Positions 13,195 to 55,176 of a DNA stretch of 64,000 nucleotides are shown here, one piece after another (within the stretch, counting starts at the first letter, position 1; every line of letters starts with the position of its first letter). The notes under the pieces are model-generated. The model was not told the origin of the DNA. It did not search any database and saw only the letters and a list, made by a program, of their open reading frames with translations. The stretch is taken from positions 11,966,001-12,030,000 of the forward strand of contig OX597833.1 of NCBI GenBank assembly GCA_951406725.2, read 5' to 3'. Made by a program: the position numbers and the translations under genes. Source of the stretch: Octopus vulgaris (lineage: Eukaryota).

Positions 13195-13570
13195 TTATCG
13201 TTAAGCTAACATGGAAGTCCAGGAAAATAGGATGAATGCTGCTGTTGATTAGCTCCAAGAGGCCATCGCCTCTAGCTAGCTATGTGACACACAAACCTGT
13301 GTCCATTACAACCTTCGAACAGGGGAGGTCAGTAGCGACACCTACTGGATTCAGCTACTCCACATTGATAAGGGGCAATCACCTCGAGACTAGTCTGTAA
13401 ATTTGTAAGGCCAGCAAGGGGAAGCTGATGACCTCCCCTGTTCGAAGGTTGTAATGGAAACAGGTTTGTGTGTCACATAGTTAGGTAGAGGCAATGGCCT
13501 CTTGGAGCTAATCAACGGGCAGCATTCGTCCTATTTTCCTGGATGGCCTTGTTAGCTTGGTGATAGCTAT
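13195..13570. mobile_element. Inverted-repeat PLE-like remnant
   Basis: Arms ~13219-13331 and ~13428-13541; spacer holds a hammerhead-like fold. Confidence 0.6.
13362..13398 (+). ncRNA. Minimal hammerhead-like motif, U3:A8 variant
   Basis: ACA TTGATAA GGGG-CAATCA-CCTC GAGA CTAG TC TGT; palindromic loop III CTAG; GAAA altered to GAGA. Confidence 0.55.
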
Positions 13571-13834
13571 TAATATCCAGTACTACTGCCGTAGTCTCTT
13601 TAGAGAGATATAGAAATATTAATGTTTATATGTACATGTATATATACGCATATAAGTATACATTTATAAATGTCTATATATGCATATAAATATACATACA
13701 CACACACATATATGTATATATATATATATATATATATATATATATATATATATATATATATATGCATATATGAATGCATATATATATATGCATGTATATA
13801 TATGCATATAAATATTTTCATATATAATGATAGG

Positions 13835-14085
13835 GTTTTTGTAAGGATGTGGGCAGTACTTGTTACCACAATCTTTCGGATTTCTCCGAGACATGATTCT
13901 CCTGGGACATTATCCAGATTTTTTTACATCACTTTCTTATGATACCTAGGGCACCTACAATAACAGGAACAGTTCTCGCTTTAAGAAGCTACGCTTTTTG
14001 TCTTTCAATTTCCAGGTTCTTATATTTACTTAATTTGCCAAATTCCTTACTGATATATTTTTATCAATGAGAACGCTTACATCGG
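13835..14085 (-). mobile_element. R4/Dong-like non-LTR retrotransposon relic (restriction-like endonuclease C-terminus)
   Basis: Translates KLSKYKNLEIE...VPVIVGALG...[14 protein letters not shown]. Confidence 0.7.
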
Positions 14086-14829
14086 TGCTTCTTTGGAAGC
14101 GCACCTCTCCATGAAAATGACGCCTAATTTCTAAAAAATATTAAAATGGGAAATATATCCAAATTTAATGAAGCATGCTAAAAATTAGGAGGATTCATCA
14201 ATTTTTAAATATTTTATGCTAAAAAATAAAATACGGATATCAATATCATTATAAAATAATCCTTATCTTATTTTATTCTATATCTTTATTTACATTTCTT
14301 TTATACTTTTTATATCATTCTGTAAAAGATATTTTATAAATTTTTATATTTTTTACTATTACATTTTTATGCATTTATTTACCTTTTTATACATTTAAGT
14401 AGCTTTTGTGTCTTATGACTGGTTTGGCAGTTTATAATTTATTTTCATAAAACTTACTGTATAATATAATATTATATTTTTACATTTGTAATTACACATT
14501 ATATTTTATAAATTCTTATATTCTATATTTGATATTTTTATACATTTATATATCCTTTTATATATTTTCATAGTGTTTATAATTTATAAAAAATTTTTGA
14601 CAATTTATAAGTTTTTTTTATATAGTTCACTGGATATGTGAATGCTTATTTTATTATACTTTTTATACTTTATTATACTTATTTTATTATACTTTTTAAT
14701 CATGCAGTATATTCATTAAGTGTTTATATACCCGAATGTACCCGAACGTTACCGCATATATTGGATACCGTTTCTTACGATATCTTATATTTATCCATCC
14801 GTAATGAAGCGAAAGTTTCTTATATTAGT

Positions 14830-15309
14830 ACGTTTATATATATTTGTTGTGCAAGATTTTCTATGTGAAGTCGTGTGTTGAGACAGATATTGTTATATTT
14901 CGGAATGGTCATTTTGCCAGTTTAGCCAATAAAAACACACGTACTATATATTTGGTGTTATTTATTTTTTACATTAATCTTAATCTTATTTCGGCCAGAG
15001 TTCTTTCGTCACACTCCTGTGACCGCATCAGTGGTCCTTTGTTTTCTTCTTTCTTATTTGTGTCTCTCCTTACTAACCGTCAGCCATTTTGTATTTCTGA
15101 CGGTTAGTAAGGAGAGACACAAATAAGAAAGAAGAAAACAAAGGACCACTGATGCGGTCACAGGAGTGTGACGAAAGAACTCTGGCCGAAATAAGATTAA
15201 GATTAATGTAAAAAATAAATAACACCGAAGCAAAATAACACCAAATATATAGTGCGTATGTTTTTATTGGCTAAACTGGCAAAATGACCATTCCGAAATA
15301 TAACAATAT
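14830..15309. mobile_element. Palindromic PLE-like remnant
   Basis: Arms ~14887-15083 and ~15097-15309; same family at 52714-52930. Confidence 0.7.
15146..15185 (+). ncRNA. Hammerhead-like motif with A9C core (mirror on minus at 14995-15034)
   Basis: CCA CTGATGC G GTCAC-AGGAGT-GTGAC GAAA GAAC TC TGG. Confidence 0.6.
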
Positions 15310-15978
15310 TTCTTATATTAGTTTAACGTATACTATAAGTTTCAATTCATACGATAAATTAATTCCGTTATACATTCATTATAGAATATCTTTACCATGA
15401 TTTTCTTTATACTGTGTTTAAGAAATGTCTTAATATTTTTTCTTAGATATTAAAGTATCCTATTATTACGTTTTTGATTTAATTTCTAACCTTTTTCTAT
15501 ATACTTGTTTAAATTTTCTCGCTTTAACATTACAAATTTGCTAAGTTATAATATACAACCTCTCTTATTCCCTGATTCTAAATTCCACCCCTAAATTTTA
15601 TATTACTTATCCCTTTGGTTTTTCATTATATTCCCCTTTAATATGATAAATAAATTAATAAAATGTCGGCAATTTTCCCGACACGGGTATACTTGTTTTG
15701 AACATATTCTTCCACTACTGTGATGTGTGGTAAAGAGAGTGTATATGTTTGTGAATTCAGAAGTAGTGGAAATATATTGGTTTCAGATTTTGGCACAAGG
15801 CCGCCAATTACGAGAGAGGTAGTAAGTCGATTACACCTACCCCAGTGTTCAACTGGTGCCTATTTTATCAAACACCAGAAAGATAACAGACAAATTCGAC
15901 AGCAGCGGAACATGAACTCAGAAAGCAAAGAAGGGCCAAGTGTTGTTAAACATTTCGGCATGCATGCTAACGATTCTT

Positions 15979-16576
15979 ATTTCTTATTGCCCACAAGGAG
16001 CTAAACACAGAGGGGACAAACAAGGACAGACAAAGGGATTAAGTCGATTATATCGACCCCAGTGCGTAACTGGTACTTAATTTATCGACCCCGAAAGGAT
16101 GAAAGGCAAAGTTGGCCTCGGCGGAATTTGAACTCAGAACGTAACAGTAGATGAGATACCTATTTCTTTACTACCCACAAGGGGCTAAATACAGAGGGGA
16201 CAAACAAGGACAGACAAACGGATTAAGTCGATTATATCGACCCCAGTGCGTAACTGGTACTTAATTTATCGGCCCCGAAAGAATAAAAGGCAAAGTTGGC
16301 CTCGGCGGAATTTGAACTCAGAACGTAACAGTAGATGAGAAATCTATTTCTTTACTACCCACAAGAGGCTAAATACAGAGGGGACAAACAAGGACAGACA
16401 AACGGATTAAGTCGATTATATCGACCCCAGTGCGTAACTGGTACTTAATTTATCGACCCCAAAAGGATGAAAGGCAAAGTTGGCCTCGGCGGAATTTGAA
16501 CTCAGAACGTAACGGCAGACGAAATACGGCTACGCATTTCCCCCGGCGTGCTAACGCTTCTGCCAGCTCTCCGCCC
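15979..16576 (-). mobile_element. SINE family B: one head plus three tandem ~183-bp body units
   Basis: Units begin near 15979, 16161, 16345; B box gagttcaaattcc in each; older diverged copy at ~15780-15975. Confidence 0.88.
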
Positions 16577-53956: not shown

Positions 53957-54029
53957 CGCAGACCGGCGATTTCACCTATTAACTAATGAATCGCTTACGT
54001 AATCCCTCGTCCGTAGGCTCGTCAGTGCG
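53957..54029 (-). ncRNA. Type I hammerhead with canonical core and 35-nt loop II
   Basis: CGCA CTGACGA GCCTA-35nt-TAGGT GAAA TC-GCC-GG TC TGCG. Confidence 0.75.
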
Positions 54030-54344
54030 ATCGTTCCACAGGTAATATAATTTGTAAAACTAATCACCAGTTTTCCGTATAAAAACAGACACGTGCTTAG
54101 TTTCACCGATTACATTGGGGTTAATTTCAAATGTCTGAGTTCTGGCGCGCTAAAATTCCGGAAACAAAACCTGCAGTAAATAATTTACTGCAGTTTATAT
54201 ATATGTATATATATATATATATATATATATATATATATATATATATATATATATATGTGTGTGTGTGTGTGTGTGTGTGTGTGTATATATATTTATTTGT
54301 ATATATATATGTGTATATATGTGTATGTATATATATATATGTAT

Positions 54345-54474
54345 ATCTATCTATCTATCTATCTATCTATCTATCTATCTATCTATCTATCTATCTATCT
54401 ATCTATCTATCTATCTATCTATCTATCTATCTATCTATCTATCTATCTATCTATCTATCTATCTATCTATCTAT
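54345..54474. repeat. (TATC)n microsatellite
   Basis: Direct inspection; also 63136-63465. Confidence 0.95.
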
Positions 54475-55069
54475 ACGTATGTATGTATGTATGTATGTCT
54501 GTACGCATGTATGCATGTATATGAAGGCGCGTGGCCTTGTAGTCAGGCATGTTGTACACATGATCGTGAGATAGTGATTTTGATTGTCAGACCGATTTCA
54601 CGTTGTGTTCTTGAGCAAAACACTTCTTTTCACGTTGCTTTAGTGCACTCAGTTTCAAAGGGCCAATACTGCAATACACCAGTCGACCGATAAGGAAGAA
54701 TGTCGGCTTGCTCGCTTTATCAGCAAGGCGGCACCATTCAAAGTTAAAATGATGTGAAACGCAGTCTGGCCAGCGTTGTATACCAACATCCTATAGTCTG
54801 CTTGATGTTCATGATCACGCGGTATATATATATATATATATATATATATATATATATATATATATATATATATATATATATAATAATAATAATAATAAAT
54901 ATTAGGGAATAAATCCAAATTTACAGGAAAAAATCAGATTTAGGATTAAATCCAATTTTATAGTAAAATATTATATAATATTAATTCGAGACAAAACCAC
55001 TATTTTGCAAAACAAACAAGGAAAGACTTAATCAATACATAAAAATTTTAATATAAAGTAAATAAACCG

Positions 55070-55113
55070 CCACTACAATTGTTTCATGTCTTCAAATGAC
55101 ATTCGTCAGGTGG
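55070..55113 (-). ncRNA. Canonical minimal type I hammerhead ribozyme
   Basis: CCAC CTGACGA ATGTC-ATTTGAA-GACAT GAAA C-AATT-G TA GTGG. Confidence 0.85.
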
Positions 55114-55132
55114 ATTTCCGATCTTCGGAAAT

Positions 55133-55176
55133 CCACCTGACGAATGTCATTTGAAGACATGAAACGATTGTAGTGG
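55133..55176 (+). ncRNA. Canonical minimal type I hammerhead ribozyme
   Basis: CCAC CTGACGA ATGTC-ATTTGAA-GACAT GAAA C-GATT-G TA GTGG; predicted cut after A55172. Confidence 0.85.

Follow-up and report, generated by a model that had tools for sequence, protein, structure and literature searches.

Minimal hammerhead ribozyme motifs are abundant repeats in the Octopus vulgaris genome, and the base pair between positions 3 and 8 of their catalytic core differs from family to family. All four Watson-Crick 3:8 pairs occur within the 64-kb window that was analysed, as the original prediction had claimed, and every core 7-mer that it named is present in the sequence. The comparisons described below suggest that these are minimal type I hammerheads in the terminal repeats of Penelope-like elements and their derivatives, each family having one 3:8 pair that is probably kept for the formation of self-cutting dimers. 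Positions 3 and 8 pair in the active hammerhead conformation (PMC3884650). G8 is held by its pairing with C3 and its 2'-OH is essential (PMC8495972). Since the G8C replacement abolishes activity and C3G partly restores it (PMC8495972), any Watson-Crick 3:8 pair can serve.

The ten predicted sites (Table 1) are all present but represent only eight insertions, since 31879 and 37237 belong to one duplicated unit and 55070 and 55133 to one inverted pair. Each site is designated by the low end of its motif, and seven of the ten are on the minus strand. The 31879 site is the stub of a Penelope-like pLTR that is carried within the duplicated composite repeat. Five of the eight window families are non-canonical at 3:8 (U:A, A:U or G:C) and thus fail the C3 and G8 of CUGANGA.

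Table 1. Hammerhead motifs and associated Penelope-like remnants in the window
Position (strand)	Feature	Details
13359..13401 (+)	Decayed U3:A8 hammerhead	GAGA for GAAA
23745..23781 (+)	U3:A8 minimal hammerhead within fold-back	Extra base after A9; stem I 3 bp
31879..31929 (-)	G3:C8 minimal hammerhead	Core 31922-31916; U17; G inserted after A9; stem I 7 bp, stem II 5 bp; palindrome of A and U only
37237..37287 (-)	Same G3:C8 stub, second copy	Arose via 5.36-kb duplication; no independent event
42520..42552 (-)	A3:U8 minimal hammerhead	Core 42548-42542; only 2 bp of stem I remain after decay
43245..43463 (-)	GIY-YIG endonuclease remnant	Upstream of 42520 A3:U8 motif
51761..51813 (-)	C3:G8 hammerhead-like motif	Judged from single copy; imperfect tail, long loop
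52175..52598 (-)	5'-truncated Penelope-like copy	Endonuclease C-terminus 52598-52461, then 3' UTR with U3:A8 motif, (TA)n end
52316..52355 (-)	U3:A8 minimal hammerhead	Core 52348-52342; stem I 7 bp, stem II 2 bp, palindrome 6 bp
53957..54029 (-)	C3:G8 hammerhead-like motif	Judged from single copy; long loop II, imperfect tail
55070..55113 (-)	C3:G8 hammerhead	Palindrome 8 bp; low-scoring Rfam Hammerhead_1 match
55133..55176 (+)	Inverted second copy of 55070 C3:G8 motif	Both are one insertion

The fold said to be shared by these sites was written as a descriptor (N-UGA-N-N-A, stem II, GAAA, UH, stem I) in which positions 3 and 8 are free. The order U4 G5 A6, A9, GAAA and UH, closed by stem I, is found at eight of the ten sites and in the family majorities of the other two. 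These are 13362, with GAGA in the window copy and GAAA in its family, and 42520, where stem I is too short but reaches 4 bp in most family copies; both are decayed copies of well-formed families. The fold had to be amended in two respects. An additional base between A9 and G10.1 must be allowed at 23745 and 31879/37237, and what was described as a short loop is in the variant families a palindrome, which points to dimers. A G10.1-C11.1 pair closes stem II in all five variant families and at 51761, with A-U at 55070 and G-U at 53957. Of the 340 matches in an Rfam scan of the whole window, the 150 listed included no hammerhead and were all microsatellite or hairpin noise. Rfam gave no hammerhead match at the G3:C8 site or at five variant loci, and the 55070 motif scored 11.8 bits against Hammerhead_1 (RF00163), below the gathering score of 34.

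In the window the descriptor has 12 matches, 11 of them Watson-Crick at 3:8, whereas 60 dinucleotide shuffles gave on average 5.6 matches and 1.4 Watson-Crick pairs (maximum 5). Requiring a palindrome leaves 7 matches, all Watson-Crick, against shuffle means of 0.82 matches and 0.25 Watson-Crick pairs. Because the descriptor was drawn up after the sites had been seen, it was rerun on an independent sample of 40 evenly spaced 10-kb stretches (400 kb). The loose form gave 31 Watson-Crick pairs in 73 matches (null 13.6 of 50.4) and the strict form 7 in 9 (null 0.17 of 0.77), the strict matches outnumbering those of every shuffle. None of the strict matches in the 400-kb sample was G3:C8 or A3:U8, so the window owes its four pairs to a chance sampling of genome-wide repeats and not to any feature of the locus.

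Genome-wide searches gave 1,653 matches for the U3:A8 family and 931 for the A3:U8 family, each against none in the backward control. The G3:C8 family gave 4,438 against none, a total that includes passive copies in the composite repeat (at least 40 of them identical). A search for one tail class returned 2,903 matches against 8 in the control; 2,584 of these carry U:A or A:U and the canonical share is estimated at about 4%, which bears out the expectation that searches fixed on CUGANGA would miss most of this class. The non-canonical pairs are family traits and not products of decay, as is evident from the majorities within families (36/37 U:A, 30/35 A:U, 42/42 U:A and 34/34 U:A). The same holds for G3:C8, with G:C in 97 of the first 100 matches listed; the first 30 loci listed for this family are a single composite repeat and uninformative on the family.

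When loci were clustered by sequence, 12 of 13 clusters had a Watson-Crick majority at 3:8, among them 7 of the 8 clusters from outside the originally predicted list; no relatives of the three canonical (C3:G8) window families were among the loci examined. One superfamily has two-sided changes at 9 of 14 pairs, 3:8 and the palindrome among them, with N7 free to vary, a control inflated by related sequences. The anticipated covariation at 3:8 is thus seen in related families, together with that of stems I and II and the palindrome. Family consensuses that were canonical or mismatched at 3:8 would have spoken against the original prediction. The family majorities are variant Watson-Crick pairs, but U3·G8 sub-lineages do exist: U3·G8 was found in 43 of the first 100 of 196 matches, so wobble lineages have been amplified too, and some of these copies sit directly downstream of an endonuclease end. 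Single copies with U·G, C·A and A·C at 3:8 were also seen; the wobble pair is the only amplified non-Watson-Crick type observed. An older G3:C8 subfamily at 73-78% identity has the same pair while N7, loop and palindrome differ, in a search whose pattern fixed G3 and C8. A loose pattern for further G3:C8 families gave no excess (109 matches against 488 in the control), and of six such matches inspected four were mutually related, one was ambiguous and one chance-like. Each pair type appears to trace to few lineages, G3:C8 and A3:U8 to one each, and independent switches appear to be few.

The 52316 U3:A8, A3:U8 and G3:C8 families have Penelope-like GIY-YIG ORFs of two distant lineages upstream of them and are therefore minimal, dimer-type hammerheads of the kind known from Penelope-like elements, in agreement with what had been proposed for them. 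The U3:A8 and A3:U8 motifs share a scaffold, and the endonuclease remnants upstream of them are about 40-55% identical. A U3:A8 locus (L237) has a reverse transcriptase match (RVT_1, E 4e-8), a weak GIY-YIG match and two hammerhead motifs 3,468 nt apart, as in tandem pLTRs. Endonuclease remnants were found upstream in 6 of 30 A3:U8 loci; in the window copy the remnant is split by a short repeat and the endonuclease end picks up again near 42870-42800. The parent of the G3:C8 family has a GIY-YIG ORF in 7 of 11 loci chosen by upstream sequence, with a C-terminal GIY-YIG match (E 8e-5) that in two copies ends 998 and 1,114 nt before the core. Its reverse transcriptase was seen only in the homologues P0002 and P0005, and Pfam reported no family in P0001, P0002 or P0005. 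The GIY-YIG ORF of L169 was rejected as a G3:C8 parent because the other copies lose similarity to L169 at position 713 and contain another ORF. A CX2-5CxxC linker before GIY-YIG (as defined in PMC8557442), which together with placement by RT tree would mark the Neptune or Nematis clade, is present in both lineages. Inverted and 5'-truncated copies, a tail of about 60 nt and (TA)n ends are further hallmarks of Penelope-like elements. An intron is predicted in the terminal repeat of the G3:C8 family, and 2 of 30 G3:C8 copies extend to acceptor-like sequence. No endonuclease was detected within 1.5-kb flanks upstream of the 23745 family (0 of 30 loci) or the 13362 family (0 of 30 loci), the latter being related to 358-359-bp tandem retrozyme-like repeats.

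Palindromes of 4-8 bp (15.1 to 16.1) in the six families that were folded would allow a dimer helix III; at 51761 and 53957 the palindrome is imperfect. Dimer folding predicts the double hammerhead as the minimum for four of six real copies. The double hammerhead lies 4-5 kcal/mol above the predicted minimum for the G3:C8 copies, where the minimum lengthens stem I by a G3·U17 pair, and 10 kcal/mol above it for the 23745 family.

Three other explanations should be considered. That the variants are look-alikes picked by eye in AT-rich repeats is very improbable. The loose descriptor does find some 50 chance matches per 400 kb, and the loose G3:C8 pattern matches no more often than its control; however, strict matches exceed every shuffle, the stems covary, and the families occupy the usual position of Penelope hammerheads. 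Family-level conservation and position thus largely refute this reading. It is also improbable, if less so, that master elements let positions 3 and 8 drift freely and that the pairs arose by accident and hitchhiked to high copy number. The amplified U3·G8 lineages, the single mismatched copies, the small number of independent lineages and the passive copies among the G3:C8 matches would fit such drift. Yet wobble is the sole non-Watson-Crick type seen to be amplified, G3:C8 and A3:U8 each require two transversions that both landed on a pair, and the older subfamily kept G3:C8, albeit under a pattern that fixed both bases.

A more serious alternative, though still an unlikely one, is that the fold with its 3:8 pair is kept for a non-catalytic role, such as protein binding or translation control near the ORF start, with little or no cleavage by the variant cores. 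Minimal Penelope hammerheads are reported to cleave slowly even as dimers (PMC4209133). In a 2024 study cleavage proved dispensable for insertion in vitro, cleavage of a Penelope hammerhead needed protein, and RNA ends at the cut site were not found (PMC11167929). Thousands of G3:C8 copies retain the whole uncut motif, and the predicted fold with G3·U17 offers an alternative structure. Against this, the 3:8 pair is part of the active conformation (PMC3884650), and conservation extends to the catalytic G12, UH site and dimer palindrome, whereas N7 and the loops vary. We consider it likely that Watson-Crick 3:8 pairing is kept because the RNAs self-cut, an activity predicted from sequence. Two motif copies would pair via their palindromes to a self-cutting dimer, probably aided by the element's protein. 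Selection would act on a small number of master elements, with two motifs in their tandem transcripts and cleavage after H17, and the dispersed stubs, including all those in the window, would be inert and decaying. The pair may have switched by way of tolerated states, U3·G8 for example.

The minimal hammerheads described for metazoan Penelope-like elements (Cervera and de la Pena 2014, PMC4209133) are likewise of type I with a short stem I, have a palindrome in place of helix III, often contain an extra base between 9 and 10.1 and a G10.1-C11.1 pair, and occur in pLTRs and as thousands of lone copies, all as found here. That work gives a U3:A8 variant in Schistosoma (about 1,300 matches), which corresponds to the octopus U3:A8 motifs, and Fig. 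S3 has one U3·G8 example (Saccoglossus), a type that forms lineages here. The 56 representatives in the extracted text of Fig. S3 include neither a cephalopod nor a core with G3:C8 or A3:U8, whereas the octopus genome has thousands of G3:C8 and hundreds of A3:U8 copies, and all four pairs plus the wobble. Since U3:A8 is published for Penelope elements, only G3:C8 and A3:U8 can be new. Natural covariation of C3-G8 to U3-A8, the only natural variant named in the parts consulted, was described by Perreault et al. 2011 (PMC3088659), according to which covarying 3:8 pairs were already known to be active in vitro. We found no report of natural G3:C8 or A3:U8 hammerheads in a literature search with incomplete coverage of key hammerhead papers.

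The closest counterpart of the G3:C8 family is the anole element Poseidon (Frangieh et al. 2024, PMC11167929), in which an engineered C3G/G8C core, the same as the octopus one, partially rescued the Penelope hammerhead. The Poseidon hammerhead lies near the ORF start and two 3' end points define its tail, as in the octopus family. In Poseidon, G3:C8 is a partly active laboratory rescue of a C3:G8 element; here an abundant family from a zinc-finger-linker lineage carries it naturally. The relatives of the 13362 family, tandem 358-359-bp repeats with a type I hammerhead, resemble non-LTR retrozymes at the DNA level (PMC7229834; bioRxiv 10.64898/2026.07.22.740005), but sister arrays here differ in having C3:G8 or U3:A8.

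The widest reading of these data is that every 3:8 pair is natural and amplified in one genome, that its G3:C8 and A3:U8 hammerheads are the first from nature and its U3·G8 lineages surviving intermediates, that this reflects selection for cleavage in vivo, and that most of one tail class is invisible to CUGANGA-fixed searches. We advance it tentatively, as possible but somewhat doubtful when taken as a whole. Cleavage by the Penelope hammerhead is slow and protein-dependent and is not needed for insertion in vitro (PMC4209133, PMC11167929). At the level of sequence, the clearest evidence for selection on the active conformation comes from natural double changes at a pair of the active fold. 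The natural variants supply ready-made constructs, and hammerheads are undercounted in censuses that fix C3 and G8. If the widest reading holds, evolution would have run the full compensatory-mutation experiment on the 3:8 pair.

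The variant core pairs at 3:8 are real, are traits of whole repeat families, and are linked to Penelope-like elements. Every core named in the original prediction is present in the window (C20:11,966,001-12,030,000, from an assembly of 2.8 Gb in 227 contigs), which is AT-rich and crowded with microsatellites and tandem repeats. With positions 3 and 8 left free, eight of the ten proposed sites were recovered, but the ten amount to eight insertions; an extra base after A9 was needed at two sites, and two are decayed copies. The descriptor gave 12 matches in the window, 11 of them Watson-Crick, against means of 5.6 and 1.4 (maximum 5) in 60 shuffles; a palindrome filter left 7/7 Watson-Crick, against shuffle means of 0.82 matches and 0.25 Watson-Crick. 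Because the descriptor had been fitted after the sites were known, it was applied again to evenly spaced stretches totalling 400 kb. There the strict form returned nine matches (five C:G, two U:A, one C:C and one U:G; null 0.77) and the loose form 31 Watson-Crick pairs among 73 matches (null 13.6 of 50.4).

Five variant sites were each represented by their 30 best-matching loci, in which columns were counted. The family of site 52316 carries U:A at 3:8 in 36 of 37 rows, as do those of 23745 (42/42) and 13362 (34/34, with N7 variable: 27 U, 3 G, 3 A, 1 C), and the family of 42520 carries A:U in 30 of 35. Since best-match loci are biased toward the query, patterns leaving 3 and 8 unspecified were also counted across the genome. 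The scaffold of the G3:C8 family was matched 4,438 times (control 0); some of these are passive copies inside a composite repeat, and G3:C8 was read in 97 of the 100 matches listed. The class with a GAAA-CCGG-UC tail has 2,903 matches (control 8), including 931 A3:U8, 1,653 U3:A8 and a further 196 whose position 8 is G or C; the 100 listed of these 196 were counted by hand as 57 C3:G8 and 43 U3·G8, with no G3:C8. By extrapolation, about 93% of this class is therefore Watson-Crick. Over all fetched sequence, 188 strict matches fall into 13 clusters, 12 with a Watson-Crick majority. In the strict clusters N17 mostly lacks Watson-Crick pairing to N3 (G3 with U17 in 69/69, A3 with C17 in 18/19), apart from A17 in 2/30 of one U3 cluster.

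In the 52316 family the reverse transcriptase thumb, a linker rich in cysteines' positions and the GIY-YIG domain all precede the motif. In another copy (L237), a pair of motifs separated by 3,468 nt flanks an open stretch of 517 residues with RVT_1 (E 4e-8). A related endonuclease remnant lies upstream of the A3:U8 motif in 6 of 30 loci, the window copy among them. These two families share the same small scaffold, so a double transversion separates U3:A8 from A3:U8. No endonuclease was found upstream in 30 loci each of the 23745 and 13362 families.

The G3:C8 parent belongs to a distant lineage. An ORF at locus L169 was rejected as parent, being a different element that abuts the terminal repeat; the junction reflects either nested insertion or template switching. 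Among eleven loci picked by upstream sequence, seven hold the parent, an ORF with a C-terminal GIY-YIG domain and a CX3CX2C linker, which ends 998 and 1,114 nt upstream of the core in two copies. A tblastn comparison with the first lineage's endonuclease gave no match; homologues of the parent (37-53% identical) can be aligned to the RT region of the first lineage at roughly 25%. G3:C8 copies have two end points about 60 nt apart that span an open frame, matching the Penelope tail that PMC11167929 describes. At positions 3 and 8, contigs from four runs, each labelled as a different organism, showed no difference (10% threshold, cover present).

Two of 30 G3:C8 copies extend upstream into branch-point-like and acceptor-like sequence, and the contigs depart from the reference at that point. 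These observations point to an intron whose end lies immediately ahead of helix I, with short copies arising from spliced RNA. The Penelope element of Drosophila virilis reportedly has an intron that ends likewise. The composite repeat, with at least 40 genome copies identical across 151 bp, could be a non-autonomous element of recent origin that has picked up the G3:C8 stub.

Features in the window and at fetched genome loci (L)
Feature	Position	Remarks
C3:G8 hammerhead-like motif	window 1476-1527 (+)	perfect palindrome, weak stem II; outside range of original prediction
38-bp satellite	window 2339-4798	65 copies
184-bp dispersed repeat	window 15978-16527, 27779-28146, 46973-47643	short tandem arrays
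Composite repeat with G3:C8 stub	window 31278-34611 / 36642-40029 and 34585-36644 / 39971-42030	duplication spacing about 5.36 kb
Other-lineage endonuclease ORF	L169:1-713	meets G3:C8 terminal repeat at internal point
Start of most G3:C8 copies	L012:2170-2215, L169:1460-1505, L180	about 15-25 nt upstream of core
Older G3:C8 subfamily	L249-L251, L253	73-78% identity; N7, loop II and palindrome all different
Two amplified U3·G8 lineages	L221-L223 and tail-class matches listed	one with widely spaced inverted pairs
Tandem arrays of 358-360 bp	L225-L228, L232, L233	retrozyme-like

The 13362 family is related to tandem arrays of 358-359 bp, some sister forms having C3:G8 and others U3:A8; in the 358-360-bp arrays, sister families are set apart by compensatory mutations of the 3:8 pair and of stem I. 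In 30 array-related sequences 92% of cells are paired and 9 of 14 pairs have changed on both sides, against a control inflated by shared ancestry; 3:8 is U:A in 26, C:G in one, U·G in one and unpaired in two. The U3·G8 wobble could plausibly have served as an intermediate on the way between C:G and U:A. Within the 52316 lineage, a subfamily with U3·G8 has been amplified together with the endonuclease end that it carries, and there is another U3·G8 family; the inverted pairs of one lineage may be long copies.

Each variant family retains a 4-6-bp palindrome at the helix III position. In 4 of 6 real copies, the minimum-energy structure predicted for the dimer is a double hammerhead, and none of the predicted monomer folds adopts a hammerhead. 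G8, whose 2'-OH is essential, is held through pairing to C3, and G8C is partly rescued by C3G (PMC8495972); C3G rescues in the same way in a Penelope hammerhead that requires the element's protein for cutting (PMC11167929). From the palindromes, the predicted folds and this rescue we infer that tandem transcripts are probably cut as dimers, helped by the element's protein, and that selection would act in master elements. Against this reading stand the amplified U3·G8 lineages, Rfam scores under threshold, and the origin of G3:C8 and A3:U8 from one lineage each. In five G3:C8 copies the double hammerhead is predicted to lie 4-5 kcal/mol above a G3·U17 fold, and cleavage is dispensable for insertion in vitro (PMC11167929).

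Minimal motifs of this kind were defined by Cervera and de la Pena (PMC4209133), who reported U3:A8 in Schistosoma elements and listed one U3·G8; natural U3:A8 was also reported by Perreault et al. (PMC3088659). The 56-row alignment of PMC4209133 holds neither G3:C8 nor A3:U8, whereas both form families here. The literature search found G3:C8 as an engineered variant only and found no natural G3:C8 or A3:U8 hammerhead, which does not establish their absence from print, and it found no octopus hammerheads among the records listed or in passages of PMC8557442. That both pairs are unreported in nature and also active is possible, although we lean slightly against it. The elements themselves are of a known kind; what differs here is the variant core pair.
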